Origin: Bacteroidales bacterium
Lineage (GTDB): Bacteria; Bacteroidota; Bacteroidia; Bacteroidales; WCHB1-69
Direction of reading: 5' to 3'
NCBI GenBank assembly: GCA_017438945.1
Contig: JAFRUI010000018.1
Coordinates: 16,049-80,048, forward strand
Length of the DNA: 64,000 bases
Shown: positions 10,546 through 49,454 of the stretch, piece by piece
How positions within the stretch are numbered: the first letter of the stretch is position 1
How the letters are laid out: each line of letters starts with the position of its first letter
The notes under the pieces: generated by a model
Database searches by the model: none
Told to the model about the DNA's origin: nothing
What the model saw: the letters and a program-made list of their open reading frames with translations, nothing else
Program-made: the position numbers and the translations under genes

Positions 10546-10573
10546 GTAGAGACGCGCCATGGCACGTTTCTAC
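10546..10573. repeat. GTAGAGACG-type palindromic REP
   Basis: GTAGAGACGCGCCATGGCACGTTTCTAC is an imperfect palindrome. Related copies lie at 1278, 28107, 35069 and 50517. Confidence 0.75.
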
Positions 10574-26896: not shown

Positions 26897-26974
26897 ACAT
26901 AATTTTCGATAATCGCGATGATGGCGTGAATGGGTTGTGGCGGGCACGTTCCGTTGCCCCCTTTGAACCCCGTC

Positions 26975-27050
26975 AGGGGTTCAATGTCTGTAGCCCGGTG
27001 CGGTTCCCCTCGATGTTCCGCAGAACCCCGTCATGGGTTCCCTGTCCGTA
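26975..27050. repeat. REP doublet (GAACCCCGTCAGGGGTTC .. GAACCCCGTCATGGGTTC)
   Basis: Two palindromic hairpins about 58 nt apart. The ~75-bp unit recurs at 27967-28037. Confidence 0.8.
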
Positions 27051-27199
27051 TGGGTTCCATCGATATTTTTAAATGCAACGAAACAAAACAACGCAGCATA
27101 TCGGAGATAAAATTTACAATTAATTGTAAATAAATATTTGATTATCAATATATTATAAAATTTTGTATTTTTGAGGCGAATTAAAAAAATAAAAAAAAT

Positions 27200-27661
27200 A
27201 TGGCAAATACATATTCTCAGATTTACCACCATTACATTTTCGCTGTACAACACAGACAGTGTCTTATCCAATCCGAATGGAAGGAAGAATTGTACAAATA
27301 CATGACGGGGTGCATCACCAATCACGGATGCAAACTGTTGAGCATTGGCGGGGTTGCAGATCATATCCATATTTTGACGGGTATGAACCCAGATGTTTCT
27401 TGTGCCACGTTGATGGCGGATGTGAAACGTAGTTCCACTTTGTGGATTAACAAGAAATTCTATCGCCCAGGTCGGTTTTCCTGGCAGAACGGGTACGGGG
27501 TTTTCAGCTACGCCAGATCCGCCATCCCGAATGTGGCGAAATATATTGAAAATCAGGTCCGGCATCACAAAAAGAAGACATTCCAGGAGGAATATGTCAA
27601 AATTCTAAATGATTTTGGCGTTGATTACGACGAACAATACATTTTCCATCCCGTGTTGTAA
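27200..27661 (+). CDS. Y1 (HUH) transposase, IS200-like / REP-associated tyrosine transposase (RAYT)
   Basis: 153 aa. The HUH motif (ADHIHIL) and catalytic-Tyr region (WQNGYGVFSY) are present, and the gene is flanked on both sides by REP hairpins. Confidence 0.8.
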   Translation: MANTYSQIYHHYIFAVQHRQCLIQSEWKEELYKYMTGCITNHGCKLLSIGGVADHIHILTGMNPDVSCATLMADVKRSSTLWINKKFYRPGRFSWQNGYGVFSYARSAIPNVAKYIENQVRHHKKKTFQEEYVKILNDFGVDYDEQYIFHPVL

Positions 27662-27704
27662 CAATCGGTCCTTCCTTACGGATTCGATTCGGCATATACA
27701 AATG

Positions 27705-28037
27705 CCCCGAATGGGGATGTGACGAACGACTGTTGGGATTCGTTTCCACGGGCATGCAACCCCCACCGGGGTTGTGGCGGACGCGATGTGCAACCCGTTG
27801 CTACATACATGTAACCCCTAACGGGGTTATGCGGGCGCGCCGACACGTATCCCGCTACAGAGATGGATCCCCTACGGGGATGATGGCGGATTCATTCGCC
27901 GGAACCGTTGCCACGGATATGGATTTCCCTACGGAGATAACGGCGGGTTCGTTCCGTCATTCCCATGAACCCCGTCAGGGGTTCCATGTCTGTAGTGCGG
28001 TCCCTCACGATGTTCCGCAGAACCCCGTTAAGGGTTC
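27705..28037. repeat. array of REP hairpins (xCCCC-loop-GGGGx) in ~45-55-bp diverged units
   Basis: Hairpins lie at 27705-27716, 27757-27774, 27812-27829, 27867-27881, 27967-27984 and 28020-28037. Confidence 0.8.
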
Positions 28038-28106
28038 CATCACCATTTCCCCACCACAACCGCCATCCCCGCCACGAAGAACGGCAGCAGGAAGAAGATG
28101 ACGGCG

Positions 28107-28134
28107 TGTAGAGACGTGCCATGGCGCGTCTCCT
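28107..28134. repeat. GTAGAGACG-type palindromic REP
   Basis: TGTAGAGACGTGCCATGGCGCGTCTC is identical over 26 nt to the copy at 35069. It overlaps the stop codon of the 83-aa gene. Confidence 0.8.
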
Positions 28135-28384
28135 ATAGGGCGTTGCCCACGCGGTTGTCAAAGAGTTGCACCCGCGATTTGGTCCAGAAGAGTTTCGGGG
28201 GAACGTCCAACGCCCAATTCGTGAACCCGAGGATGAACCCCGCGAGCGCGAGCCCGCCCGCGAGGACATAGACGTGCCTCCCGATGCCGATGTCGCCGTA
28301 GGCGATTTCCGAGAGCAGAACTAACAGCCCGAAGAGGTTGGTGATGGGCGCGATTTTTTGGATGAGCCAGAGGAGGGCGGTCAT
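28133..28384 (-). CDS. small membrane protein (2 predicted TM), unknown family
   Basis: 83 aa with two hydrophobic stretches. It is the last ORF of the same-strand cluster, 19 nt after the preceding gene. Confidence 0.5.
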   Translation of the reverse strand: MTALLWLIQKIAPITNLFGLLVLLSEIAYGDIGIGRHVYVLAGGLALAGFILGFTNWALDVPPKLFWTKSRVQLFDNRVGNAL

Positions 28385-28770: not shown

Positions 28771-29010
28771 TCATAATTGTTTTACCGTCCAACCGTTGGC
28801 ATTTGTGATTTTAGAAGGCCTGCTGAAGCCGCTTCTCCATTTACAACCAGTCTGCTTCAAGAAATCATCAGCGGAAATACCGTTTGATTCGTTTGATTCA
28901 ACCACAAAGCTCCATTCTTCACTGGAACTTCTGACGGTGCTCCCGTCGGGCTTTTCTATCCACTGCAATGCAGACAATCCCTTTCCTGTTACTAAAAGTT
29001 TATATCTCAT
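28771..29010 (-). CDS. hypothetical small protein, unknown family
   Basis: 79 aa, in a visibly AT-richer stretch. Confidence 0.45.
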   Translation of the reverse strand: MRYKLLVTGKGLSALQWIEKPDGSTVRSSSEEWSFVVESNESNGISADDFLKQTGCKWRSGFSRPSKITNANGWTVKQL

Positions 29011-29128
29011 GATAATACGATTTTAAGTTGCCTACTCTTTTATGGATTTTCGGCTTCCTCCTTGATACTTTTCAAATACAAGTATAAACTACAAACAGGA
29101 ATGTATGCCTTGTCGAATACTTAACCAA

Positions 29129-29728
29129 CTAAATTTCAATGATGTAATATTTAGCTGGTACAGACGTGATTGGATCTGCTGCTTTATCTCTGTCCCAAAA
29201 GTTTGTTGAATTCCAAATCGCATTATAAGAGTTTTTGATTGTAAGCTGTTTCGGCCCTTTGATCGTAGGATTAGAAATTACACCTTGGATTGAAGTTCCG
29301 ACACGGAAATAGCTATAAATACCTTTGGTTTTTAATCCTTGTTTGGTGCAAAAATTCATATTATCGACAAGAGAAACCGCACAACCGCCATTAAAACCGA
29401 TATTTTTCAACTGCTCAATAAAACAAATATCTTCAACGAATTGGAACATTCTTCTTGGATATGCACCATTACGTGGAAACTTTAGTTCAATGGCGAACTT
29501 TTCGTTCTTGTCAAACACCGCAATGTCAATCTCTTGTTTTACAGTGGCTGTATTTATTCCAAAGAAGTTAGTGTTTCTCTCAAATTGCACACTGTAATTG
29601 GGACATTTATTGCGTAAGAATATGCCAAGTTCGTGCTGCAATGAATATTCATTATAGAGTTCGATTTTATGGCTGTACGCGTAACTGAAAAAATCGCTGA
29701 TGTAAACAGATAAATCTTGTGATGTCAT
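29129..29728 (-). CDS. PD-(D/E)xK nuclease-fold candidate
   Basis: The motif order is E (SLQHELG) .. D (QEIDIAVF) .. ExK (AIELKF), with 12 residues between the D and the ExK. ATG at 29728 chosen; a GTG at 29800 abutting the upstream stop is an alternative. Confidence 0.55.
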   Translation of the reverse strand: MTSQDLSVYISDFFSYAYSHKIELYNEYSLQHELGIFLRNKCPNYSVQFERNTNFFGINTATVKQEIDIAVFDKNEKFAIELKFPRNGAYPRRMFQFVEDICFIEQLKNIGFNGGCAVSLVDNMNFCTKQGLKTKGIYSYFRVGTSIQGVISNPTIKGPKQLTIKNSYNAIWNSTNFWDRDKAADPITSVPAKYYIIEI

Positions 29729-29800
29729 AATGATTTGAATTAAATTGATGAAATATGAATAAATAGATGCGTTTCTGTGGGATGTGCCCAAAACGCGCAC

Positions 29801-30148
29801 TTATTGTTTCGCCCTTGCTATCCCATAGACAATCATAATGAAAGTCAACACCAACAAACCTACTACAATGACGAAGGCAGGCGGGGTGAATTGCACGAAG
29901 GCATACACGAAACAGCAGACGAGCATGATGAGGGTGAATGCGCCGCCCAGTGCGGCAATGTTGCCGGAAGTGCGGGATTGTTCGAACCGGACACCCAAGG
30001 CGGTGGCCAACGGGATGAAGGTGGCGATGCCACCACCAATGCCCAAAAGCAGTTCCTGCCCTTCGGTCTTACAAAGGGCATACAAGGCATAGCCAATCAA
30101 TGCGCTGATGGCTAATGCAATAATGGTGGGAATAAGGTTTATTTTCAT
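29801..30148 (-). CDS. 4-TM small membrane protein
   Basis: 115 aa with four hydrophobic helices. It starts 7 nt after the upstream GYF gene. Confidence 0.65.
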   Translation of the reverse strand: MKINLIPTIIALAISALIGYALYALCKTEGQELLLGIGGGIATFIPLATALGVRFEQSRTSGNIAALGGAFTLIMLVCCFVYAFVQFTPPAFVIVVGLLVLTFIMIVYGIARAKQ

Positions 30149-30155
30149 ACTCTCG

Positions 30156-30542
30156 TTATTTTGGCTGGTTAAACGCTGGCGGTGCCAACAAAACTAATTT
30201 CAAAACTTCTGGCGTGTTTTCCACTGTCTGCCATTCGCTCATACCCGGCTTCCAGACGTAAGTGTCTTTGGTGATCTGTTTGGAGGAAATGAGTTTCATT
30301 ACTTCGGTTTCGGACAAAGGCCCGACGGAATTGCCGTTAATGACGACATAGAAAACTTGTGGAAGAGGTTGTGGCATTGGCGCAGCTTGCGAAGGCTGTG
30401 CCTGTGTCATCGGGTTCATCGTCCCCGGGATGTACATGCTCTGCATCGTTTGGTTCATTGTCTGAACCATCTGCTGGGCAACGGCCATACTCATACCGAA
30501 CTCAATTAGCCGGTCGATGGAGAAGAAATTGTTATTGTCCAT
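30156..30542 (-). CDS. GYF_2 (DUF4339) domain protein with Met/Gln- and Pro-rich N-terminal half
   Basis: 128 aa. FYVVINGNSVGPLSETEVMKLISSKQITKDTYVWKPGMSEWQTVENTPEV fits the GYF_2 pattern. Confidence 0.7.
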   Translation of the reverse strand: MDNNNFFSIDRLIEFGMSMAVAQQMVQTMNQTMQSMYIPGTMNPMTQAQPSQAAPMPQPLPQVFYVVINGNSVGPLSETEVMKLISSKQITKDTYVWKPGMSEWQTVENTPEVLKLVLLAPPAFNQPK

Positions 30543-30563
30543 ATTTCACTATTTTATTAAATG

Positions 30564-31961
30564 TTACGGCATTGGAGGGGTTGGAGGCATAGGCGGCGGA
30601 ACGGCTCCAAACAGATTGGCGAGTTCCTGTACGTTACCTGCAAACTCCCAGTTGGGCATCCCTTGCTTCCAAACATACGTTTGTGCAGTAAGTTGTCCGT
30701 TCTGCACCAATTGTTGCAACTGTTGCATGTTGTAGGGACCGAATTGTTGTCCATTGACAGAAACCAGATAAGCCACATTCACGGCACCAGGCATGGGTGG
30801 AGGTGTCATCTGTGGCTGTGCTTGTTGCTGTGGCTGTTGCGGCATGCTCGCTTGTTGCATCTGCTGCCCCATTCGATTCATCATATTCCCCATTTGGCCT
30901 CCCATAGCGCCACCCATTGCCATTCCCATCATCATCCCGGCAGGATTCATTCCGCCTACATTGCCATTCTCCAAATTCACTTGGCTCATCTCACCGAGAT
31001 TCTGTGCAGCAGTTGAGAGTACTTCAGTCTGTTTGTCTATGCTGTGAGCGGCAATATTTGCATTCTCTGTCTGCAGACGTTGCGCACGCTGAGCTTCTTC
31101 ACGCTGGATACGGAGCGACTCCTCCATATTTTCAGCATTAATACGCTGCATTTCCTGCATGTTCTTGAGGTTGATTTCTGTTTGTGTTTCTATGGTCTTG
31201 GTTTGCTGACCAGCAGTTATTTTACGCAACTCAAGATAACCGTCACTTTCCTTGTCGGGCTCGATGGCTGCTATATCCACAGCTTTCATAAATACGCCAA
31301 AATCGGTTTCCAATCTGGGCTTAAGATATTGAGATACAATATCATTGATTTCTAATATTTTCCGTTCCATCTGCAATACGGGAATCCCGTTGTCTTGTGG
31401 AACGTTGGTCACCACACCTTTCACATATTTCACTACAGCATCTTTAATTTGCTTTTTGAAATCCTCCAATTCGAAATTAATGAGGCGGTGCAGCTTTATG
31501 AACGCCTTGTAGTCCTGTATGTTGAACGTTAGAGTCCCCCTTACTGCCATCGGCACAGGATAGTCTAAAAAACGCGGATCAAAGACATCAAAGTAAGGCA
31601 CAGCGAATTTGACTTGAACAACTCCTGCCAGATTGATGTAATAGACCTCTGCTTGGAAAGGGGATGAACCTCCAAACGCTAACCCCACTATCTTGGTAAG
31701 TATGGGGAAGTTTGCCGTTTTTATGGTGTCATCGTATGGCCCAACGATAAAGTCTTCCATTGTGCCGTTATTTTGTTTATAGACAAAAACGGCGACCTCT
31801 CCATCTTTCACTCTGAGGCTGCTGCCATAGCGGATGGAATTCTCCTTCTTGGTGCTATTAGCTTCCTGTCCGGCAGGACGCCATTTCCAAATTAAATATT
31901 CTGGTTCATCACAGCGGATGACATCCATCAATCCGCCTTCTTTTCTGTTAAATAGGCCCAT
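30564..31961 (-). CDS. SPFH (Band_7_1 / COG4260, YdjI-like) protein with C-terminal GYF_2 domain
   Basis: 465 aa. The N-terminus ..DVIRCDEPEYLIWKWRP..GSSLRVKDGEVAVFV.. is followed by a coiled coil, a Met/Gly/Gln-rich segment, then AYLVSVNGQQFGPYNMQQLQQLVQNGQLTAQTYVWKQGMPNWEFAGNVQEL and a PPPMPPTPPMP tail. Confidence 0.8.
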   Translation of the reverse strand: MGLFNRKEGGLMDVIRCDEPEYLIWKWRPAGQEANSTKKENSIRYGSSLRVKDGEVAVFVYKQNNGTMEDFIVGPYDDTIKTANFPILTKIVGLAFGGSSPFQAEVYYINLAGVVQVKFAVPYFDVFDPRFLDYPVPMAVRGTLTFNIQDYKAFIKLHRLINFELEDFKKQIKDAVVKYVKGVVTNVPQDNGIPVLQMERKILEINDIVSQYLKPRLETDFGVFMKAVDIAAIEPDKESDGYLELRKITAGQQTKTIETQTEINLKNMQEMQRINAENMEESLRIQREEAQRAQRLQTENANIAAHSIDKQTEVLSTAAQNLGEMSQVNLENGNVGGMNPAGMMMGMAMGGAMGGQMGNMMNRMGQQMQQASMPQQPQQQAQPQMTPPPMPGAVNVAYLVSVNGQQFGPYNMQQLQQLVQNGQLTAQTYVWKQGMPNWEFAGNVQELANLFGAVPPPMPPTPPMP

Positions 31962-32041
31962 AGTTTCCCTTTTTAGATGATTTTACTGCTTTTGTTAAAC
32001 CCATACATATCAATCAACTTAATTGTCGGATATTTTCACAA

Positions 32042-33265
32042 TCAATATGATTCTATAATGCTGGCAATTTCTTTGATGACTTTTTTAGGTTTCCCCAATT
32101 CATCGTTTTTTGTGATTTCATCTTTATGAATATTCAAAAAACGTTCAGCTTCTTCTTTCTTGCCGCCTTCGCATAGGGATACTACTACATCTTTAATGTA
32201 TTTTCCATTATATTTCTCGTGGAAGTAAGCAGTTTGACAAATGCCTTTCGCTTTTTCATACTCACCATGATTAATGCAATAATCGTAGAGTTTTGTGGAA
32301 ATTATATCATCGTATTTTGCTTCTACAGCAGATGCGACTCGCATGGCATTGTCAAGATTCTCTTCTGATAGACAAGCATCGACGATAGAACCTGCCAGTT
32401 TTTTGTCGGTTTCATCAGATGCCAAAAACAACTTCACGGCTTCTTGAGTGTCTCCCGTTTTTAAAGCAGTGGTGATTTCTTTCGAACTTTCACTTTTCAC
32501 CTTTGAATCTTTTGAAGAGTAAGACAGGGTTATTGGAAGAATAATAGCCAATAAGACAATCCAGATAGCTATACCTATAATCAGCATCTTAGTTCTTTGA
32601 GATTTTGATTTCCACCATCCCATTTTTTTATCTTCCTCAAGAAAGGGAGCGAGATCTTTGTCATGAGGAAACAGCATGCGGGCTTTATCGATACACTCTT
32701 TGTATTTTGTTCTATACGCATCCGCATAGAGGCTTTGATTATCGCTCATCTTGGTTTTCATGGTTATGATGAACTCCATCAAATCCGCTTTTGTATTCGG
32801 AACTGGGAAGTTTCTGATTGCTGCATGAATCCTGGTATCATTTCCTTTCCCAGTAAAAACCCCAGCGTAAGTTTGTGTGATTTTTTTTAAAGTAGATTTA
32901 TCCTCATCTTCCTTGGTCATTTTGTCAAGCATCTCAGAGAATCTCCGAGAAGAAGAATTTGCCTCAATGTTTTCAAAAGCATACCCACATTCCGGACATA
33001 TTCCTTGATAGCTTTGCACAATTGCCCCGCAGGCAGGACATTTTTTCACATCGCCAAACTTGTTGCTTTTTGGTGCGGAGGAAGCCGCTTTCTCTTCTTC
33101 GGCTTTCTTCAGCTTCACCAACCGTGCGTCCAGCACCATCTCAAATTCATCCAAGTCCACTCCCAGTGTCTGGGCTTTCTTGAAAAGTACCTGTTTTTCC
33201 TTTTCGGTCAGTTCACCATCCGCCAAAGCGGCATCAATCAATTGTTCTAATTGTTCGTTGTACAT
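32042..33265 (-). CDS. TerB-like N-terminal hairpin + zinc ribbon + single TM + helical C-terminal domain protein
   Basis: 407 aa. Contains LIDAALADGELTEKEKQVLFKKA, CPACGAIVQSYQGICPECGY and the TM helix MLIIGIAIWIVLLAIILPITL. The stretch is AT-rich. Confidence 0.7.
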   Translation of the reverse strand: MYNEQLEQLIDAALADGELTEKEKQVLFKKAQTLGVDLDEFEMVLDARLVKLKKAEEEKAASSAPKSNKFGDVKKCPACGAIVQSYQGICPECGYAFENIEANSSSRRFSEMLDKMTKEDEDKSTLKKITQTYAGVFTGKGNDTRIHAAIRNFPVPNTKADLMEFIITMKTKMSDNQSLYADAYRTKYKECIDKARMLFPHDKDLAPFLEEDKKMGWWKSKSQRTKMLIIGIAIWIVLLAIILPITLSYSSKDSKVKSESSKEITTALKTGDTQEAVKLFLASDETDKKLAGSIVDACLSEENLDNAMRVASAVEAKYDDIISTKLYDYCINHGEYEKAKGICQTAYFHEKYNGKYIKDVVVSLCEGGKKEEAERFLNIHKDEITKNDELGKPKKVIKEIASIIESY

Positions 33266-33539
33266 AATAAATGGCTATATTTGAAATTCAATTGAATATT
33301 ATCACCTTTCCAAATCCCTTTCTTTTCCATCTGCAAAATAAAAACTTTCCCGTCAAACCGCCATAACCCATTTTGACCCATTTTAACGGGCTGTGCGCTT
33401 CATGGGATGACGCTTTCTTTCCCGTTCTTATCAGGGGTCAAAAATATACAATATATAATTATGATTATCAGATGTTTAGCAAAGTATTGCTTGGCGGATT
33501 GCACAGAATTAATGGGCAGAAGCGGCGGGATGTTATGAA

Positions 33540-33626
33540 TTTGCAGTTTGAACTATAAAAATAGTGGAGATTTTTGCAGTTTAAAATATAAAAATCGTAT
33601 GCTTTTTTGCAGTTTAAATATAAATT
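33540..33626 (+). repeat. three direct repeats (iteron-like) with exact 33-bp phasing
   Basis: TTTGCAGTTTGAACTATAAAAAT (33540), TTTGCAGTTTAAAATATAAAAAT (33573) and TTTGCAGTTTAAATATAAATT (33606). Confidence 0.85.
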
Positions 33627-33698
33627 GCGCTTTTGACAGCTTCCTGGCTATGGCTCTTCTTCGTTGCACCTGTTGGCGTGTTCTCGTGATTTTCCAGA

Positions 33699-33890
33699 GG
33701 AGATTCCGCTCGCTCACTGCGTTCGCGGCGGAATGGTGCATACCTCCGTATGAGACCAAAGGGGAGAAGATGGGCGGCAGGGAAAAACTGCCGTTGCCTG
33801 ATGTTTCGCGATTGCCGCCCATCTTCTCCCCCATTTCCCAGTATGTGGCGCACCATTCCGCCAGTGACGATAGGAACTGGCGGAATCTCC
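33699..33890. repeat. nested ~190-bp imperfect palindrome
   Basis: Three nested arm pairs: 33699-33709/33880-33890 (11 bp), 33727-33739/33850-33862 (13 bp) and 33761-33779/33813-33831 (19 bp, perfect). Confidence 0.85.
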
Positions 33891-34028
33891 TACGTTCAAA
33901 GACAAATTTCCACAAAAAAGTATGAGTCTGACTTGCGAAACTTGAGCTTCTTAGCATTAACTGAATGGAAGTCGGCCACGGCAACCGCATCCCGCTCTGG
34001 CTGTTCGGACTGCTGTATTAACGGCGGA

Positions 34029-34077
34029 ATGGTAAAATATCGCAGTCTGAAAGTATGAAAAATGGTAAAATATCGCA
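34029..34077 (+). repeat. 16-bp direct repeat ATGGTAAAATATCGCA x2, 33-bp phasing
   Basis: Copies lie at 34029-34044 and 34062-34077, immediately 3' of the HTH gene. Confidence 0.85.
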
Positions 34078-34079
34078 CC

Positions 34080-34343
34080 TTAACTTTCCCCCATCCCGTT
34101 TATATATTCCCCAAGCTGCCCCTGCTGCTCGCGGTAGGAGCGGCTCAGGTCGGCGAAGAAGTCGTAGTCGAGGATTTGGGCGAGCTTCATCAGCGTGTTC
34201 GTGTCAATCCACTGGCGGGAGAAGATGAGATAGACGTTGTTGCGGTGGCAGCCTAACTGCTGCGCTAACCACGGCACCTTGATCCCCTTCCGGGTCACCA
34301 CCCGACGGATGACTTGCCCTATGTGCAGACCCTCTTCGCTCAT
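34080..34343 (-). CDS. small helix-turn-helix (XRE-like) DNA-binding protein
   Basis: 87 aa from MSEEGLHIGQVIRRVVTRKGIKVPWLAQQLGCHRNNVYLIFSRQ... The longer ORF-track N-terminus looks non-coding. Confidence 0.55.
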   Translation of the reverse strand: MSEEGLHIGQVIRRVVTRKGIKVPWLAQQLGCHRNNVYLIFSRQWIDTNTLMKLAQILDYDFFADLSRSYREQQGQLGEYINGMGES

Positions 34344-34620
34344 CGCTCTACCGTTTGTGACATACAAATGGCGTGGAATTTCGCTTGTCCGACTCTCGGG
34401 TTTCCACTCCCACACATCCGACAAGCACTCCACGCCGTTACAAACGGTCTGCGGAATCTGTCCTTGATGTGTGTTTGTCCCCTGTTTAACAGAGGAAGTG
34501 TGGAAAATGAGAGTCAAGGATAGCTGCAAACGCTATTTTATATGTTCGATTGTTTCTTTTCTGTTCTTTTTCTACTGTTTGTTTTGGTGACACTGACAAA
34601 CGGGACGAAATTCCGCCCGT

Positions 34621-34678
34621 CCATTTTGACCCGCAAAACTACAAATTTTTCGGATAGGATGGAATGGGTCAAAATGGG
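34621..34678. repeat. inverted pair of the GGGTCAAAATGG motif
   Basis: CCATTTTGACCC (34621-34632) and GGGTCAAAATGGG (34666-34678) are separated by 33 nt. Confidence 0.75.
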
Positions 34679-34756
34679 TTGTCGCTCAGTTACCTCAATT
34701 CGCGGGAAAGTTTGCATCACCAGCCAAAACAGAACGGTAAAAAAGTGCCTATACTC

Positions 34757-34799
34757 GGCGGAATCTATAAAATTTCAACACATTCCGCCAAGTATAAGG
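34757..34799. repeat. inverted pair of the GGCGGAAT motif
   Basis: GGCGGAAT (34757-34764) and ATTCCGCC (34792-34799). Confidence 0.75.
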
Positions 34800-34840
34800 A
34801 TGTTTTTCACTTGCTTGACCATCGTCACGCCTTACAAATC

Positions 34841-34887
34841 CTCTCATCGCCTCATCGTTAATTCGTCGCTTCGTCGCATCATCTTCC
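34841..34887. repeat. CTCATCG-family short tandem repeats
   Basis: CTCTCATCGCCTCATCGTTAATTCGTCGCTTCGTCGCATCATC belongs to the same unit family as 15391 and 17920-18020. Confidence 0.6.
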
Positions 34888-35017
34888 GATTTCCTGCAAA
34901 ATAACGACCCTTAAATTTACAATTACAAGACTAATAGTTAACGTAATATTGACAAAGTATTGATTCCAAGCGAGAAAGAAATTTCGCAAAACCCTTGACA
35001 AACGGGATGATTTGATG

Positions 35018-35025
35018 TATCTTTG
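35018..35025 (+). promoter_or_regulatory. -7 promoter box upstream of the Rpn-family gene
   Basis: TATCTTTG is preceded by TTGACAAACGGGA. The transcript would include the REP at 35069. Confidence 0.45.
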
Positions 35026-35068
35026 CCATTGGAAACACGGTTGGAAGAAGGACATGTTGTGCCGCTGT

Positions 35069-35097
35069 TGTAGAGACGTGCCATGGCGCGTCTCTAC
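35069..35097. repeat. GTAGAGACG-type palindromic REP
   Basis: TGTAGAGACGTGCCATGGCGCGTCTCTAC, which shares 26 identical nt with the copy at 28107. Confidence 0.8.
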
Positions 35098-35148
35098 GGA
35101 CAACCGTCTGACCGGAACGAACAAAATAACAAACCTAAACAAAAAACA

Positions 35149-36144
35149 ATGACGAAAAAGAAAACAAAAAGAAAGTCCAAAACAGAATCGTTGTTAGACG
35201 AGGTGAATAGCAGACGGATTGACCTGACTCCCGAACAGGTGGACACGATCATCACAGAGCGAGGACTCGTGTTTATAGACCCGCTCTCAGATTTCGGTTT
35301 CAAACGTCTGCTCGGAATGGAGCGGACCAAGGACATCACCATTCATCTCCTCAACACTTTCATGAGTGACGACACGGGGGTGATCACCGACATCACTTTC
35401 ATCTCGTCAGAGCAGGTCGGGCTGTTGCCGGGGAAAAAGAAGGTTCGCCTGGACATCCACTGCAAAACGCAGAACGGCGACCACATCATCATAGAGATGC
35501 AGCGTGAGCGGCAGATGTTCTTTGTCAGACGCCTTCGGGCATACCATAGCTATTCTACAATCAGCGAAGTGAAAATCGGCGACACGGTGTATGCGACCGT
35601 ACCTAAAGTGTTCTCCATAAGTTTCATGGAGAAAGACATGCCCGAATTCAAGGGCAAAAGCAGGTTTCTTTGGAAAGTTTATCCCAAAGATGACGACAAT
35701 GAGATTTTTTCTAAAGAAAATGTTTGGTATTTTGTAGAATTGTGTAAATTTGCCGCGCAGTTGGAAACGCTGGATCTGACCGATGGGAAGAACCACTGGC
35801 TCTACATGCTTACCCATGTGGCGGACATCAGCGAGGATGAAGTTCAACGTATGGATCCGGTTTACCAACGGTTTTACGAAGAGTGCCGAATATCAAACCT
35901 TAATGAAATGGAAAAGAAAGAATACGTGACGAGTGTGTTAGAGTACGACGATGTACGGGAGTCGATGATGTGCGAACGCGAAGTAGGGAGAGAGGAAGGA
36001 CGTGAAGAAGGACGTGAAGAGGGTCGTCAAGAAGAAAGGCGCCAACTCGCAGTGAATATGCTGTCAAAAGGTTTCGATTCAGCCGTAATCGCTGAAATCA
36101 CCAGCTTGTCGGAAAATGAGGTTCTCGCTTTGGTGGAAAGATAA
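35149..36144 (+). CDS. Rpn-family recombination-promoting nuclease / PD-(D/E)xK putative transposase
   Basis: ..FIDPLSDFGFKRLLG.., ..RLDIHCKTQNGDHIIIEMQ.. (D..ExQ core) and a C-terminal EGREEGREEGREEGR repeat. Start set to MTKKKTKRK. Confidence 0.8.
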   Translation: MTKKKTKRKSKTESLLDEVNSRRIDLTPEQVDTIITERGLVFIDPLSDFGFKRLLGMERTKDITIHLLNTFMSDDTGVITDITFISSEQVGLLPGKKKVRLDIHCKTQNGDHIIIEMQRERQMFFVRRLRAYHSYSTISEVKIGDTVYATVPKVFSISFMEKDMPEFKGKSRFLWKVYPKDDDNEIFSKENVWYFVELCKFAAQLETLDLTDGKNHWLYMLTHVADISEDEVQRMDPVYQRFYEECRISNLNEMEKKEYVTSVLEYDDVRESMMCEREVGREEGREEGREEGRQEERRQLAVNMLSKGFDSAVIAEITSLSENEVLALVER

Positions 36145-36442
36145 ATGTAAGGATTGATGGTCAAGGGAAGAGGCTGAGAATCAAGGTAGCCTGCCGGTGC
36201 AGGGACTAACGATCAACAGCGAAACCCGTCAGCGCAAACATTAACGAATAACAAATGCATCATTCCGTTTGGCCTCCATCCCCTACCGAAAAAAACACGC
36301 TTTCCCCACAAGCACCGCTCTAACTCTAATGGAAAAAAGGATAGGCTGACCGTCCAAACGGAACCTCCACACCGCAAGGGCAAAAACCTCCCATCCTCTC
36401 AAATGGGTCAAAATGGGAAGCACTGACAAACTGCAAAATGTT

Positions 36443-36450
36443 TACTTTTG
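36443..36450 (+). promoter_or_regulatory. -7 promoter box for the gene at 36472
   Basis: TACTTTTG lies 22 nt upstream of the ATG and is preceded by GGGTCAAAATGGG and TGACAAAC motifs. Confidence 0.5.
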
Positions 36451-36471
36451 CCGCCGAAAATCAGATTATAC

Positions 36472-37053
36472 ATGGACGACAACGACAAAATCTATATCGA
36501 ACACCTGAAAACCCTTCTTTGCGAGGCCTTGGAACGGCAGATGAACCGCTCCTCCGACTTCGTGTTCCTGCAGGCCTACATCTTCGAGCGCACCCGCGAG
36601 AACATCGGCCTCAACACGCTGAAACGGATCTGGAACTATGGAAACACGCCCGTAGCCCCACGTATCTTCACGCTGGATGTTCTGTCCAAAGCCCTCGGCT
36701 ACCGCAATTTCGAGGACATGAAACGCTTCTACGGCGATGAAGGTACAGACTCTTCCGACAAGGTGCTCGGCAAGGTGGTGAGCAGTCAGGATTTGCGCCC
36801 GGGCGACCGCGTGACGCTCTGCTGGGATCCCGGCCGCCGCTGCACCGTGGAATACCTCGGCAGCAACGCCTACCGCGTAGTCAGCAGCGAACGCACCAAG
36901 CTGAAACCCGGCAACACCTTCCAGACCGCCTTCTTCGCCACCGGCTCCCCCCTCATCCTCTCCAACCTCGTCCAAGACGACTCCTTCGCCACCCTCTACG
37001 AAATCGGCCGCAAATCCGGCGTGACACAATTGACGGTGGAAACCGCGAAATAA
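36472..37053 (+). CDS. hypothetical protein (helical N-terminal half, beta-rich GC-rich C-terminal half)
   Basis: 193 aa from the ATG at 36472 (the track start at 36448 is TTG). No family recognised. Confidence 0.6.
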   Translation: MDDNDKIYIEHLKTLLCEALERQMNRSSDFVFLQAYIFERTRENIGLNTLKRIWNYGNTPVAPRIFTLDVLSKALGYRNFEDMKRFYGDEGTDSSDKVLGKVVSSQDLRPGDRVTLCWDPGRRCTVEYLGSNAYRVVSSERTKLKPGNTFQTAFFATGSPLILSNLVQDDSFATLYEIGRKSGVTQLTVETAK

Positions 37054-37140
37054 CCTCCATCGTAATCCAAACGCTACCGAGCTCTTGCCCCTGCCGGGGC
37101 TGCTCAAGGAAGATGCTTCACCCCCCTGCCCTGCGGGCAT

Positions 37141-37156
37141 CCCCCCTAAAGGGGGG
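37141..37156. repeat. REP-like hairpin CCCCCC-TAAA-GGGGGG
   Basis: Read directly. A related CCCCCCTTTAGGGGGG lies at about 42552-42567. Confidence 0.6.
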
Positions 37157-37176
37157 AATTGGGGTTTTTCGAAACT

Positions 37177-37211
37177 GCTAACTACTAACTACTAACTGCT
37201 AACTGTTAATC
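37177..37211. repeat. tandem heptamer array ([AG]CTAACT)
   Basis: GCTAACTACTAACTACTAACTGCTAACTGTTAATC overlaps the kinase stop codon at 37199-37201. Confidence 0.8.
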
Positions 37212-38986
37212 GCTTCTATCCTCTTGAACTTTCCCCACACATCGTGTTTCCGGTACTTCTCCACCGACTGGGCGGGCACGTACAGCACCGCGCTGTCGGG
37301 TATGCCGTACAGGGAGTTCGGCAGCATGGTGGGCGGCTCCACACATCGGACAATCATGGTTTCCAGCGATTTGTTGTCGTTGAAGGCGTAGCTCTCAATG
37401 TGCTTCACACCACTGCCAATGTCCACATCTCGTAAATAATTGCAATATGAAAAACTGTACGAACCGATGAGTTCTGTGTGGTCAGGTATGACAATATGCT
37501 CAAGGCGGCTTGCATAGAAGGCCCCGTGGGAAATCTTTCGCAATGAATCGGGGAAATGAAAGTCTCGGAGATTGTATGAATAGACCGCAAATTCGTGGGG
37601 CAGTTCCCGTATATGGTTTGGGAGTTCAATTTCTTCCAGCCACTCCATATCGATGAACAAGCGTGGCGGCAAAACATAGACCGAATCATCCACGATGGCT
37701 TTTTTTAAGGAATTGCATCGATAGAAAAACTGGTTGCCCAGATTGGAAAGAGGGCCCGTCGTGCAGTCAAGTGCTTTCCAAACGAGGACAGCCAGAGAAT
37801 GACAGTCATTGAAAGCATTGGACTCCAAAACTTTAAGAGATCGCGGAATGACTAAAGTGTCTGATAACATATTGCAACATGAAAATGCCCCACATCCGAT
37901 TCGTTCAAGACCTTCAGAAAAAACAATATGCGTAAGGTTGGAACAATTGTCGAAGGCGTTGGAATCCAGTTCGGTGACACGATAGCTGACTCCTCGGCAT
38001 CGGATTCGCGAAGGGATGACCATATCGCCAGAAGGGGCGTTGGGGATATCGTGCCAGCTTCTCGCATTGCTGGGACATACGAAGGCCACCGTGCGGTGCC
38101 AGTGCGACAGCACCTTGGCATAGACCGTCTGCCCGGAGTCTAACGTGACAGGGAATTTCTTGCCGTTCGGGTGCATCCACCAGCAGAAGAGACCGACTAT
38201 GACCACGGGCAGCAACCACAACCACCATCGCGGTCGCATCAGCTTTGCCAAAGCCGCCACCGACTGCGGACGTTTGTTGGGGTCGGGGCGTTGCGCACGG
38301 CGGACGGCTCGACCGTAACGGTACGGGAACATCCGCTTCAGCAGGCCCCCCAAGGCGTAGATGTCGCTGCGGTGGTCGGCGACCTGCCCAGCCAGTTGCT
38401 CGGGCGCGGCGTACTTGCGCGTGCCGCCTGTCTGCCGGAAGGCGAAGCCGCTGTTGTCGGAAAGCCCGAAGTCGATGATCTTGGCAGTCAGCCCGTCTTT
38501 GGTAATCAGAATGTTGGAAGGTTTCAGGTCAAGATGCCAGATCTGCCGTTCGTGGCAGTAGGCCATGGCGTCCAGAATCTGCCGGAAGATCCGTTTGCGG
38601 GCAGCAGCGGACGGTCGCGTGGCCAGCCATTCGTCAAGACTTTGGCCATCCACGTACTCCATCACAATGCAGAGCCCAACCTTAGTATCCTCCTCCAAGC
38701 TGTTCACCCGCACGATGTGGGGGTGGTCGAGCTGCACCCCGATCTGGTACTCCTTGGAGAGATACTCGCGCATAGCGGGATCGTCGCGATACTCGGGCGC
38801 AAGACCTTTCAGCACGTAGTAACGGCCGAAACGACGGGCACGGTAGAGTACATTGCCCGGCTGCCGGCTCCGCACAGGCAACTTCTCGTAACCGGAGAAC
38901 TCCGCCGAAAGAGCATCCAAGGAACCCGAAATGGCCCCTGAAGCATAATAATACTCCTCGCGCACGTTTTTATCTGTATCTTTCAT
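37199..38986 (-). CDS. Hanks-type Ser/Thr protein kinase - TM - BspA-type leucine-rich-repeat ectodomain
   Basis: Contains HLDLKPSNIL, IIDFGLS and YAAPEQ, then the TM helix WWLWLLPVVIVGLFCWW, then repeated ..F..C..L..I.IP..V..I...AF.. units. Confidence 0.85.
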   Translation of the reverse strand: MKDTDKNVREEYYYASGAISGSLDALSAEFSGYEKLPVRSRQPGNVLYRARRFGRYYVLKGLAPEYRDDPAMREYLSKEYQIGVQLDHPHIVRVNSLEEDTKVGLCIVMEYVDGQSLDEWLATRPSAAARKRIFRQILDAMAYCHERQIWHLDLKPSNILITKDGLTAKIIDFGLSDNSGFAFRQTGGTRKYAAPEQLAGQVADHRSDIYALGGLLKRMFPYRYGRAVRRAQRPDPNKRPQSVAALAKLMRPRWWLWLLPVVIVGLFCWWMHPNGKKFPVTLDSGQTVYAKVLSHWHRTVAFVCPSNARSWHDIPNAPSGDMVIPSRIRCRGVSYRVTELDSNAFDNCSNLTHIVFSEGLERIGCGAFSCCNMLSDTLVIPRSLKVLESNAFNDCHSLAVLVWKALDCTTGPLSNLGNQFFYRCNSLKKAIVDDSVYVLPPRLFIDMEWLEEIELPNHIRELPHEFAVYSYNLRDFHFPDSLRKISHGAFYASRLEHIVIPDHTELIGSYSFSYCNYLRDVDIGSGVKHIESYAFNDNKSLETMIVRCVEPPTMLPNSLYGIPDSAVLYVPAQSVEKYRKHDVWGKFKRIEAINS

Positions 38987-38994
38987 AGAAGAGG

Positions 38995-39002
38995 CAAAAG
39001 TA
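38995..39002 (-). promoter_or_regulatory. -7 promoter box for the kinase gene (near-leaderless)
   Basis: TACTTTTG on the minus strand, 9 nt upstream of the ATG at 38986. Confidence 0.4.
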
Positions 39003-39041
39003 CACATTTTTCAATAACACGAGACCAATCCCTATTTTTTG

Positions 39042-39049
39042 TATTTTTG
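39042..39049 (+). promoter_or_regulatory. -7 promoter box about 190 nt upstream of prfB
   Basis: TATTTTTG. The leader would contain the (AATTGATA)10 array. Confidence 0.4.
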
Positions 39050-39062
39050 CGGCCTGCGTACT

Positions 39063-39142
39063 AATTGATAATTGATAATTGATAATTGATAATTGATAAT
39101 TGATAATTGATAATTGATAATTGATAATTGATAATTGATAAT
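39063..39142. repeat. perfect tandem octamer array (AATTGATA) x10
   Basis: Ten identical contiguous units counted from 39063 to 39142. Confidence 0.95.
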
Positions 39143-39168
39143 GAAGTGGCAAGTACATACTAATTTCC

Positions 39169-39231
39169 TAATCACTAATCACTATTCACTATTCACCAGC
39201 TTCAATAACCAATAACCCATAACCAATAACC
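39169..39231. repeat. tandem heptamer arrays (TAATCAC x2, TATTCAC x2; AATAACC/CATAACC x4)
   Basis: Read directly. The array ends 8 nt before the prfB ATG. Confidence 0.8.
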
Positions 39232-39238
39232 ATTCAAA

Positions 39239-40322
39239 ATGACAACCACCGACCAGATCAAAGCGGTTCAAACGAGGCTCAGTGAGCTAAGGAGGTATCT
39301 TTGACGTAGATGCCAAAGAACAAGAAATTAAAGACAAAGAACAAAGAACCCAACAAGACGGCTTTTGGGACGACCCGAAGGCCGCCGAGAAGTTGCTGAA
39401 GGAGATCAGCGGCATCAAGGCGTGGGTGGCCGACTACTACAAGGCCGCCGAACTGAATGATGAGCTGCTGGTAGTCAGCGAGTTCCAGCAGTCGGGCGAC
39501 GCCACCGAGGCGGAACTCGACGAGGCCTACGCCAAGACGATGGAGGCCGTGGAGAAGCTGGAGTTCAAGAACATGATGCGCGACGAGGAGGACTCCTTCG
39601 ACGCGATCCTGAACATCAACTCCGGCGCGGGCGGCACCGAAAGCTGCGACTGGGCCGAGATGCTCCTGCGTATGTACATGCGCTGGGCCGAGCGCCACAA
39701 CTTCTCCGTGAAACTCATCGACCGTCAGGAAGGTGACGTGGCCGGCATCAAGTCCGCGTCCATCGAAATCGAGGGCTCCTACGCTTACGGCTTCCTCAAG
39801 AGCGAGAACGGCGTGCACCGGTTGGTGCGCATCTCGCCGTTCGACTCCGCGGCACGACGCCACACCTCGTTCGCCTCCGTCTTCGCCTATCCCATCATCA
39901 ACGACGACATCGAGATCGAGGTCAGTCCGGCGGACATCTCGTGGGACACCTACCGCAGCAGCGGCCCCGGCGGACAGAACGTCAACAAGGTGGAGACGGC
40001 CGTGCGCCTGCACCACCACCCCACCGGCATCATCATCGAGTGCCAAGTGACCCGCTCGCAGTCGCAGAACCGCGAGAAGGCCATGCAGATGCTGAAATCG
40101 CAGCTCTACCAAATTGAGTTGGAGAAGAAGCGCGCGAAGCTCAACGAAATCGAGAGTTCCAAGAAACGCATCGAATGGGGCAGCCAGATCCGCAGCTACG
40201 TGATGCAACCTTACAAGTTGGTGAAGGATCTGCGCACGCAGTACGAAGTCGGCAACGTGAACGCGGTGATGGACGGCGACATAGACGGCTTCATCAAGGC
40301 GTACCTGATGCAATTCCATTGA
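39239..40322 (+). CDS. prfB: peptide chain release factor 2, two frames joined by programmed +1 frameshift (39239..39301, 39303..40322)
   Basis: Frame 0 runs ATG..AGG AGG TAT CTT TGA C, and the downstream frame carries SPF (RISPFDS) and GGQ (SGPGGQ). Confidence 0.95.
39291..39305 (+). promoter_or_regulatory. RF2 +1 frameshift recoding site
   Basis: An SD-like AGGAGG lies 3 nt before the CTT TGA C slippery/stop context. Confidence 0.9.
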
Positions 40323-48139: not shown

Positions 48140-49454
48140 GGGGGGGTATATTTCTGATTATCAATTGGTTATCTTATTTAGTTCATTCCAAGTCGCATGA
48201 CTTGCTCGTACCGGCACAGGTTGTAGACCAGGTTTGTCAGGGTGTTGTAGGCCGCGTTCCGCGCAAAGCCGACCTCTCGGCTGGACATTCCGTGAAGGCA
48301 CTCTTCCATGTATCCGAGAACACATGTTCCACCCTCACGCGCAGCTTCGAGTTCTACCTGTTGATGGTCTCCTGCCATTTGCTGATTTTCTTGCCTCGGG
48401 TGTTCCGCTTGATCACCTTGTCCTTCATCCCGAACTTCCGCATCACCCTCTTCACCCCTTTGCCGATGTAGGCACTGTCAGCGAGCAAATCCTCACCCCT
48501 GTCATTCTCATCCACAAGCTCTTTCACCGGCTTGGAGTCGTGGTCGGAAGCAGTCGTGGTCACCACTTTCTTGATGAACTTGCTCCCCTTGTCCACTTTT
48601 GCATGGTTCTTGTAGCCGTAATGTTTTTCGCCGCCCTTCTTCACCCATCGGGCATCCGTGTCCTTCTGCCTCTTCTTGTTGGCCTTGCGCTTCTTCTCCT
48701 CCTCGGTGTCGCCCTCTTCGGGATTCCACAACTCGCCGCCCTTGCCTTCCTTGATTTGTTTGTTCTCCTCACGCGTGTTACGCTGGCGCGGCACCTCCAC
48801 GAAGCTCCCGTCTATCATGGTGCCCTCATGCATGATCAGGTTGTTCTCGTCCAAAAAGGCGTAAAATTTATTGAACAATTGCTCGAAAAGACCTTTCTTT
48901 GTCAATTCCTCCTTGAAAGCCCATATCGTTTTCTCGTCGGGCACCTTGTCGCCGCTGGCCAATCCGAGGAAGTCGCGGAACGAGAGCCTGTCGCGAATCT
49001 GGTATTCTGTCTGCGGATCGCTAAGATGATACATCCGCTGTAGAACCACTATCTTGAACATCAGCACGTAGTCGTACGGCTTCGCGCCAACGTTGGTGAA
49101 CTTCTCCTTGTAAAGACCTTTCTCCAACGTGTCTCTAAACATTTCAAAATCAATCGCTTCCTGAAGTTTGGCCAAGGGGTTGCCCATCTTGTTCAGTCGT
49201 TCCAATGTCTCGTCGTTATCGAAAAGCCCGACGTTGCCTTGCTGCTTGTATGTTGGTTTGGTCTGATTCATTGCTCATTCAAATTCGTTGCAAATATACA
49301 AATAATTCCTTGAATGACAATGGGTTGCGAAAGATTTTTGTCATAAAAAGTTCATTTGTGGCGAATTGGCTCAAACGGGAATTTCGGGTGCCGTTTTCAG
49401 CGGATTTTAGCTCATAAGAAGCTGTTAATCAGGAAGAAATAATTAGAAGTCCCC
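48140..49454 (-). mobile_element. IS5-family insertion sequence (boundaries approximate)
   Basis: The transposase remnant is flanked by imperfect inverted ends, GGGGGGGTATATTTCTGATTATCAA and (reverse complement) GGGGACTTCTAATTATTTCTTCCTGATTAACAG. Confidence 0.5.
48178..49271 (-). pseudogene. IS5-family (DUF772 + DDE_Tnp_1) transposase, disrupted
   Basis: The 305-aa ORF ends ..KWQETINR at an in-frame TAG. RVRVEHVF continues in the same frame, then the remainder (GYMEE..LTNLVYNLCRYEQ) shifts to another frame (track ORF 48178..48378). Confidence 0.7.

Follow-up and report, generated by a model that had tools for sequence, protein, structure and literature searches.

A mosaic, repeat-rich hotspot in a Bacteroidales chromosome and a probable structured leader RNA upstream of its XRE-family gene

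Introduction

What is the role of a stretch of DNA that carries a single small gene but is densely packed with repeats and palindromes? Such a stretch, about 1.9 kb long, lies at positions 33266–35148 of the 64,000-nucleotide (nt) segment analyzed here (the window; positions 16,049 to 80,048 of contig JAFRUI010000018.1, Bacteroidales assembly GCA_017438945.1). Its only intact gene (34080–34343, minus strand) encodes an 87-residue helix-turn-helix (HTH) protein of the XRE family. A preliminary description, made from the sequence alone, proposed that the region could be a replication or transfer origin, the recombinase sites of a degraded integrative element, a multi-operator regulatory region, or one or more structured noncoding RNAs. 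The repeats and palindromes that it listed are all present where it placed them and are beyond chance. Comparison with related loci gives an answer in two parts. Most probably, the region is a mosaic in a variable, defence-island-like chromosomal hotspot, not a single cis-acting machine. We are highly confident that the element of about 180 nt directly upstream of the HTH gene is a real structured RNA. The joint statement, in which the region is such a mosaic and its structured leader acts as a riboswitch-like attenuator of the XRE gene, is one that we consider rather probable.

Related loci were aligned by blastn to positions 29000–39500 of the window, first 30 and then 77 of them. The comparison set of 77 includes 30 loci from GTDB species genomes and 40 from metagenomes, all 70 found through homologues of the HTH protein and taken with their flanks; L072–L077 were reached through an open reading frame (ORF) search on the palindromic repeat described below. 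All source organisms are uncultured rumen or gut Bacteroidales. The anatomy of the region, its conservation, its covariation, the strand on which it is read and the presence or absence of each piece among relatives are matters of direct observation.

Conserved blocks and variable slots

Three blocks are conserved in the loci most like the window (the window-like clade): 33314–33592; 34062–34678, which comprises the HTH gene and its upstream region; and 36399 onward, a gene for a 201-residue protein followed by a kinase gene. What lies between and beside these blocks differs genome by genome. The first block opens with an intergenic module (33314–33539) that contains GGGTCAAAATGGG at 33368–33380 (minus strand) and a partial inverted copy at 33432–33443, and that is 84–96% identical in the 13 loci where it is found (L001–L009, L030, L032, L034, and L037). 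The cargo gene to its left varies, encoding 407 residues in the window, a 522-residue PDC-S31-like protein in L001, and 241 residues in L006. The slot that follows (33592–34062) can be in one of four states. It is empty in L001 and L003, with an 11-bp junction; it holds an intact gene for a 401-residue AAA_14/DUF4143 ATPase in L002, L004, L006, L008, L034, and L036; it holds an ATPase gene of another subtype (427 residues) in L007, L009, and L031; or it holds a palindrome-bearing segment as in the window, seen in L033, in L031, and in part of L005.

The preliminary description had suggested asking by BLASTN whether the region travels with its neighbours. Against Bacteroidales loci, the HTH gene and its leader do so, since the cluster that is found to the left of 33266–35148 in the window (TerB-like, zinc-ribbon, SPFH, and GYF proteins) begins directly with the HTH gene in L023 and loci like it. 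Judging from these arrangements, the space between the HTH gene and this cluster appears to be where cassettes come and go.

A structured leader RNA upstream of the XRE gene

When the 420 nt upstream of the HTH start were aligned across loci, a block of about 180 nt emerged that is kept far beyond the window-like clade, in about 50 loci and four sequence types, with compensatory changes. It occupies 34359–34540 (minus strand) in the window, directly upstream of the HTH gene. A covariance model (CM) built from the type-A alignment has a single match in the window, at exactly these positions (161.6 bits, E=3e-32). In related loci there is one match per locus; the full-length matches all share the strand of the HTH gene and lie upstream of it, directly adjoining it in all loci but L060, L014, and L016. 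Type B scores 45–49 bits and type D 25 bits, while type C (L010, L027, and L029) is missed by CM R1 and is placed solely by a scripted helix table. Types B, C, and D could not be aligned by MAFFT well enough for pair counting, and CM-based alignments and the scripted helix table were used for them.

In one structure, fold A, the helices Hy, PK, Ha, Hz, and Hb make up a long rod from which H0 branches off; H-1 is also part of this fold. On the minus strand of the window its helices pair 34536–34532 with 34524–34520 (H-1), 34515–34509 with 34397–34391 (Hy), 34506–34500 with 34407–34401 (PK), 34495–34490 with 34484–34479 (H0), 34472–34466 with 34418–34412 (Ha), and 34447–34444 with 34438–34435 (Hb). 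Among 18 type-A sequences, 94.9% of the alignment cells are paired, and double changes affect 65 cells, compared with 23 in shuffles (0/500). Covariation is scored at 0.263, compared with 0.116 in shuffles and at most 0.080 for structures slid by 1–3 columns. In a model-fitted alignment of 27 sequences that includes types B and D, 95.7% of the cells are paired (76.4% in shuffles), compensatory changes occur in 32 of the 42 pairs, and covariation is scored at 0.470 (0.147 in shuffles). Pairing there reaches 100% in Hy and PK, with each pair altered on both sides. RNAalifold independently predicts Hy, PK, Ha, and Hb. Fourteen representatives of types A–D keep each helix with different sequence, and the scripted table counts 758 Watson-Crick, 35 G-U, and 2 A-C pairs. 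Because G-U pairs so outnumber A-C pairs, the structure must be read on the HTH-sense strand, as expected for RNA. The covariation check that had been proposed for homologous regions can therefore be answered with strong compensatory change in both the 18- and the 27-sequence alignments. The idea of a structured noncoding RNA was correct for 34359–34540, a stretch that the preliminary description had not singled out.

The surroundings of the element are also conserved. A Bacteroidetes-type -7 box (TAnnTTTG) stands 70–110 nt upstream of it in most loci and in all types. In the window, the 5' part of the leader (34541–34641, minus strand) comprises the -7 box TAGTTTTG at 34641–34634, a small hairpin, an A-rich spacer, and a predicted start near 34627. 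At the other end, a conserved ATG or GTG stands immediately behind the U tract; with it begins either the HTH gene or a short upstream ORF (uORF). The window has the second arrangement: a uORF of 7 codons, MSQTVER (34340–34363, minus strand), begins right after the terminator U tract, and its stop overlaps the HTH start (ATGA). A fourth leader type can be seen in L060 (2467–2636), where PK is CTAGCAAA/TTTGCTAG, Hy is GTTAAAG/CTTTAAC, and about 365 nt separate the element from the HTH gene downstream.

The Rfam scan that had been suggested gave no match, as Rfam 15 at gathering threshold contains no family that matches within 33266–35148. At permissive thresholds, scans of the region and its type-A and type-B homologues returned only chance hairpin or microRNA-like matches far below threshold, and searches of the literature found no description of the motif. 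The leader RNA is probably a new cis-regulatory leader family, missing from Rfam and, as far as these searches show, undescribed. HTH-XRE genes are reported to be among the commonest neighbours of new structured-RNA candidates in human microbiomes, with 100 candidates beside them (Fremin and Bhatt 2021, PMC8040213). Compared by description only, those candidates come from human samples and span 30–219 bp, whereas the present family comes from metagenome-assembled genomes (MAGs) of the rumen.

Two folds and a proposed switch

The same 180 nt can adopt a second fold. Fold B combines Hx with a long terminator stem, in which Hc and Hd carry He as a cap; the U tract comes next, and then at once the start codon. 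Its helices in the window (minus strand) pair 34519–34514 with 34467–34462 (Hx), 34436–34429 with 34377–34370 (Hc), 34426–34420 with 34389–34383 (Hd), and 34411–34409 with 34400–34398 (He). Hc, Hd, and the U tract are present in all four types, with Hc taking the forms GCGTGGAA/TTCCACGC, CGTGAGC/GCTCACG, CCGTGGGCT/AGTTCGCGG, GGCGTGAA/TTCACGCC, and GGCGC/GCGCC; Hx also covaries between types. An alignment to the fold-B model is 94.1% paired, with 16 compensatory pairs against 8.5 in shuffles and a score of 0.246 against 0.128. The two folds share strands: the 5' strands of Hc and Hd pair with Hb and Hz in fold A, and the 5' strand of Hy pairs in Hx in fold B. Without constraints, 10 of 10 representatives have fold A as their minimum-energy structure, 5–15 kcal/mol below fold B; when Hc alone is imposed on them, Hx and He form by themselves. 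The PK pairing may be a kissing loop in these models, if He and the hairpin H0' of types B, C, and D form, or it may be a mere extension of Hy.

A position in the 5' untranslated region (UTR) on the sense strand, a covarying structure, and a terminator strand shared with an antiterminator are together what would be expected of an attenuator leader, and to judge by its sequence the element appears to combine them. The HTH gene would have a leader of about 290 nt, transcribed from near 34627, of which the last 180 nt or so would be the structured RNA. Fold A would form first during synthesis and sequester the 5' strand of the terminator, so that read-through into the HTH gene would be the default. 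An effector, whether a metabolite, a protein, or an RNA, that blocked Hy or PK, or that stabilized Hx, would free this strand and lead to termination. As the start codon abuts the terminator stem, fold B could also occlude the translation start.

Like riboswitch and attenuation leaders, this RNA lies on the sense strand in the 5' UTR before an ORF, has a multi-helix fold with long-range pairing, and has two mutually exclusive, conserved conformations that share strands, one of them ending in a terminator stem and a U tract. Unlike them, it lacks an Rfam counterpart, its antiterminator is a rod of about 45 bp that is much more stable than the terminator, its terminator hairpin is unusually long (about 60–75 nt are enclosed), and the gene that follows encodes a small XRE regulator, not a protein of metabolism or transport. 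Whether the leader works by a riboswitch-like attenuator mechanism is, in our judgement, evenly balanced.

The XRE gene and its relatives

The 87-residue XRE gene is real and conserved. The ORF matches Pfam HTH_26 (E=2e-5, 25.2 bits against a cut-off of 22) and has 72 homologues, in which the core CHRNNVYLIFSRxWIDT is invariant; the recognition helix is likewise invariant across loci. Its codon usage scores +0.45 bits per codon, against a gene mean of +0.40, while every other ORF in the stretch scores 0 or below and is without a Pfam match. The statement that the stretch has only one gene is borne out in this way, with the addition of the ATPase gene remnant described in the next section.

An AlphaFold model of the protein (pLDDT 87) has helices at residues 8–19, 23–30, 34–42, 48–58, and 62–85. 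The best Foldseek matches in the PDB are the controller (C) proteins of restriction-modification (R-M) systems, HipB, the N-domain of SinR, and CapH, with TM values of about 0.55–0.65. PADLOC, NCBIfam, and PHROGs contain no model that matches the protein. Like these relatives in structure, it is a five-helix XRE fold of about 80 residues in defence-rich surroundings. Unlike R-M controllers and their kin, to which it is only 15–29% identical, it has no identified operator. We know of no R-M controller C protein that carries a structured leader RNA. A second HTH homologue (63% identity) is found in L028 near position 7593, 1.6 kb from the first, amid three DUF4143 ATPase genes and without the leader element.

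Lost ATPase genes and the operator question

The phased direct repeats of the region can be explained by comparison with loci in which an ATPase gene is intact. Three 33-bp tandem repeats (33540–33638, plus strand; starts at 33540, 33573, and 33606) are followed in the window by a -7 box that is mutated, reading TGCGCTTTTGAC instead of TGTATTTTTGCA. In L002, L004, L006, and L008, the same repeats stand directly before TAT(C/T)TTTG and the start codon of the c9-type DUF4143 ATPase, a match to the PADLOC defence candidate PDC-S01. A tblastn search with the intact protein of L006 locates the 3' remnant of this gene in the window at 33968–34021 (plus strand; EVGHGNRIPLWLFGLLY*), that is, the last 17 codons and the stop. 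A second set (34012–34077, plus strand) consists of two repeats spaced 33 bp apart with a 17-bp perfect core, AATGGTAAAATATCGCA, at 34028 and 34061. Three copies of these precede the promoter of the c11-type ATPase gene in L007 and L009, and L031 still has an intact c11 gene, with the c11 repeats on one side of it and the HTH gene on the other. In the window both sets of repeats remain, and the c9 gene is kept only as 17 codons and a stop. Two ATPase genes, both in convergent orientation to the HTH gene, thus appear to have been lost with their operator-like upstream repeats left behind.

The arrangement recurs elsewhere. Every DUF4143 ATPase gene examined has a -7 box TAnnTTTG preceded by 2–4 tandem direct repeats of subtype-specific sequence; in L007, L009, L013, L017, L018, L026, and L028, for example, repeats with a period of about 24–33 nt stand immediately before a canonical -7 box. 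They look like subtype-specific operator arrays, possibly for autoregulation by the DNA-binding domain of the ATPase itself.

Could the whole region then be a multi-operator, in which the XRE protein or the DNA-binding domains of the ATPases bind the 33-bp repeats and GGGTCAAAATGGG to control the flanking cargo genes? Such control is compatible with the reading of the region as a mosaic with a leader RNA, and the constant place of the tandem repeats directly upstream of ATPase promoters, each with its subtype's sequence, is what it would lead one to expect. So is the placement of GGGTCAAAATGGG, which is found at the predicted start of the HTH leader and again before the 201-residue protein's gene, some 25 nt ahead of its -7 box, and so is the resemblance of the HTH fold to R-M controllers, which bind tandem operators. 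However, the ATPase genes that the window's repeats served are gone, which makes the repeats here relics. The recognition helix is invariant, yet the repeats and the M1 motif are not conserved outside the window-like clade, and M1 has no fixed position relative to promoters. We regard the multi-operator as possible but less than probable.

The short motifs themselves have been considered in other roles. GGGTCAAAATGG has four exact copies in the 64 kb, and all of them fall within 33368–36416, two as an inverted pair (34621–34632, minus strand, and 34666–34677, plus strand; region 34621–34678). Inverted motif pairs are present at 33368/33432, 34621/34666, 34350/34437, and 34739/34782. GGGTCAAAATGGG as a promoter element was rejected, its distance to -7 boxes not being constant. 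The motif GGCGGAAT occurs 13 times in the window (3.2 expected), with 7 of the 13 within 33727–34789. As an independent operator it was rejected as well: three of the seven clustered copies lie in the palindromic repeat described below and two in the terminator-like hairpin of the inserted cassette, and the copy in the leader hairpin is not conserved. Three loci with HTH homologues but no leader RNA (L046, L047, and L050) have tandem 11-mers, e.g., AAATGGACCAA AAATGGACCAA, at a distance of about 25 nt before a -7 box that is itself followed by CCGCC. The window has the same layout in the GGGTCAAAATGGG before the gene of the 201-residue protein (36405–36448). This common layout hints at a shared class of protein-binding site.

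A palindromic repeat in place of an ATPase gene

The nested 190-bp palindrome (33698–33891) has an inner perfect stem of 19 bp (33761–33779 with 33813–33831) and a folding energy of -62 kcal/mol, against -31 +/- 3 in shuffles (z = -9.4). It belongs to a larger dispersed repeat of about 297 bp (33653–33949) that resembles a miniature inverted-repeat transposable element (MITE). Its dispersal was revealed by a search with a spurious 145-residue ORF that lies over the palindrome, which returned 12 clusters of similar ORFs, all spurious and overlying copies of the repeat. Three contexts are known. At the HTH hotspot, the palindrome segment is found in the window, in L031 and L033, and in part of L005. 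An 88%-identical copy of 33653–33949 lies between a hydrolase gene and the gene of a 319-residue protein in L072–L076, of which L072 is in the same MAG as L006 but on another contig. A 75% copy in L077 adjoins a PDDEXK_2 gene, a neighbour that may be a coincidence, and there the central hairpin has been swapped for a different one. The copies at the HTH locus are too similar to one another for covariation to be measured.

The copy in L072 has both terminal inverted repeats intact (CTCAAGTTTCGCAAG and CTTGCGAAACTTGAG), whereas the copy in the window is without the left one. No clear target-site duplication was found at the ends of the L072 copy. The repeat is about 297–325 bp long and noncoding by codon usage and Pfam; hidden protein genes in the mirror-image ORFs were rejected on the same two grounds. 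Like the ERIC, Correia, and RUP elements, it is a noncoding, imperfect palindrome over its full length of about 300 bp, has terminal inverted repeats, and is dispersed in unrelated contexts. No cognate transposase was identified. From its structure and distribution, the palindrome appears to be the core of a MITE-like element, and this element to have replaced the c9 ATPase gene.

A cassette at a 16-bp site

The right end of the region belongs to a cassette with a PDDEXK_2 (Rpn-like) gene (34679–36401, plus strand), only the first 470 nt of which fall in 33266–35148. The gene itself (35140–36144; Pfam PDDEXK_2, TIGR01784) has a -7 box, TATCTTTG, at 35018–35025 and a 28-bp palindrome starting with GTAG in its 5' UTR (35070–35097). 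A terminator-like palindrome at 34739–34807 includes an inverted pair of GGCGGAAT. This hairpin, at the left edge of the cassette, has 26-nt arms and is flanked by runs of A and of T at its opposite ends, the look of a bidirectional terminator.

The 16-bp sequence AATGGGTCAAAATGGG is found as a direct repeat on both sides of the cassette, at 34663–34678 and at 36402–36417 (plus strand); the right copy is followed by the promoter (TACTTTTG) of the conserved 201-residue protein's gene. In L005, L007, L032, and L041, the site is empty and has one copy of AATGGGTCAAAATGGG, while filled sites have it on both sides. The inserts differ. L044 has the same PDDEXK_2 cassette, L003 and L006 have an AbiEii/AbiEi-like pair, L036 has an insert that begins and ends like theirs, and L001 and L008 have one of about 0.8 kb. 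The alignments thus indicate that the PDDEXK_2 cassette was inserted at a 16-bp site where relatives have nothing or other cassettes.

One copy at empty sites and two direct copies around at least three different inserts (PDDEXK_2, the AbiE pair, and the 0.8-kb segment) is the pattern left by Campbell-type integration. It can be proposed that AATGGGTCAAAATGGG is the core of a site-specific recombination site, att- or integron-like, for cassette exchange, and that the region is its scar-rich array, again in a way compatible with a mosaic that includes the leader RNA. We find this doubtful: there is no integrase or other recombinase in the cassettes or in the annotated parts of the window, the AATGGGTCAAAATGGG motif also occurs singly and in other orientations near promoters, and the same pattern could have built up through short-homology recombination in the course of evolution. 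Like integron and att sites, the locus has a short direct repeat around alternative cargo at one chromosomal position, with the sites of relatives empty. Unlike them, it has no integrase and no attC-like imperfect palindrome at the cassette ends, and its cassettes have their own promoters. An integron cassette array as such was rejected, as the annotated parts of the window contain no integrase and the cassettes carry their own -7 boxes. The preliminary suggestion of a degraded integrative element with recombinase sites is partly right and fits the region outside the leader RNA, where a MITE-like repeat and a cassette between 16-bp direct repeats are found beside the decayed remains of two ATPase cassettes.

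Weighing the attenuator reading

Several points weigh against a leader that switches. The window's own U tract is weak (CAUUUGUAUG), and a simple terminator scan finds nothing there; such scans, with sigma-70 or simple-terminator models, are uninformative for Bacteroidetes signals. The terminator stem covaries little within type A, and the support for it comes mainly from comparison between types. Alignments A7 and A8, which include the 27-sequence alignment, were fitted to models, so their pair counts are inflated and favour the structure. Transcript ends, termination, switching, and the direction of regulation are all deduced from sequence. About one quarter of the HTH homologues are without the leader element, and no effector can be named for it. 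Finally, fold A is predicted to be far more stable than fold B, so the element could be a stable rod-shaped RNA with another role.

This last point can be extended to an alternative in which the element is a stand-alone stable small RNA, or a platform for protein binding, with a terminator of its own, and the HTH gene is read through or independently expressed, with no ligand-type switching. Fold A is the minimum-energy structure everywhere, at the margin over the terminator fold given above, and in L060 the element is far from the HTH start (about 365 nt), with 170–180 nt of extra spacing in L014 and L016. In most loci, however, just 0–45 nt separate the U tract from the HTH start and so leave no room for a separate HTH promoter, and in several loci the HTH gene begins with the very start codon that follows the U tract. 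The helices specific to fold B, Hx and Hc, also covary, which is hard to explain without a second functional conformation. A stand-alone RNA is, in our view, unlikely.

A replication or transfer origin, or another DNA-level hub acting through the palindrome and iteron-like repeats, has in its favour only the form of the region, with phased direct repeats beside a long palindrome and an HTH gene, and is highly improbable: a blastn search of 72,556 plasmids and 50,697 phages finds no DNA match to the 1.9 kb, the viral contigs of IMG/VR contain next to nothing of the HTH family (one weak 26-residue match), the flanks are chromosomal housekeeping genes (ribBA, lepA, ABC transporters), no rep, relaxase, or integrase gene is nearby in the annotated parts of the window, the palindrome is a repeat dispersed in unrelated places, and close relatives without the palindrome or the repeats still keep the neighbouring genes. 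An inverton acting via a 23-nt inverted repeat at 33360/34663 was also rejected, as every locus that aligns has the same orientation and the annotated parts of the window contain no invertase.

The wider neighbourhood

In the window and its relatives, PADLOC identifies defence candidates near the region, namely PDC-S01 ATPases, a PD-T4-6-like protein with kinase and leucine-rich repeats, AbiE, and PDC-S31. The kinase protein (37199–39007, minus strand) has 602 residues, in which a Ser/Thr kinase is fused to BspA-type leucine-rich repeats; it matches PADLOC PD-T4-6 and mad6 and is conserved beside the hotspot in the window-like clade.

Other mobile or repeated sequences are found further away. 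At 26946–28054, an IS200-like Y1 transposase gene (27200–27661, Pfam Y1_Tnp) has arrays of short hairpin repeats (GAACCCCGTCAGGGGTTC and variants) on both sides, which is the layout of a REP-associated tyrosine transposase (RAYT) with clusters of repetitive extragenic palindromes (REPs). The 28-bp GTAG palindrome of the cassette (GTAGAGACGTGCCATGGCGCGTCTCTAC) has three copies in the window against 0 expected (10546–10573, 28108–28135, and 35070–35097), one of them beside the RAYT array, and a related copy in L067. The only classical transposase gene found besides the RAYT is a DDE transposase gene (DUF772 and DDE_Tnp_1) at 48354–49271 (minus strand), about 13 kb away. An Rfam motif, DUF805b, scores above gathering threshold (52.4 bits) at 29029–29063 (minus strand), just upstream of a 79-residue ORF (28771–29010).

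Significance

This locus can serve as a worked example of how a dense architecture of repeats and palindromes may be the wreckage of cassette turnover. Operator-like repeats appear here to have outlasted lost genes, a MITE to have filled a gap, and cassettes to have been exchanged at a 16-bp site.

Very few regulatory RNAs are known in Bacteroidales, where the signals of translation and transcription differ from those of model bacteria. The leader has a complexity typical of riboswitches: it has seven or eight helices and long-range pairing, may contain a kissing loop, and has two alternative folds that are both conserved. It precedes the gene of a regulator rather than an enzyme in uncultured rumen Bacteroidales. 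It is conceivable, though we think it improbable, that the leader is a new class of riboregulator (a riboswitch, or a protein- or RNA-sensing element) of rumen and gut Bacteroidales, which would sense a signal of phage attack or envelope stress and set the expression of a variable island through a C-protein-like XRE controller. The island in question would comprise the PDC-S01 ATPases, the PD-T4-6-like kinase, and the TerB, SPFH, GYF, and OmpA-type genes. If the leader does respond to an infection signal or a small molecule, it would offer a way to learn how these bacteria switch a defence or stress island.

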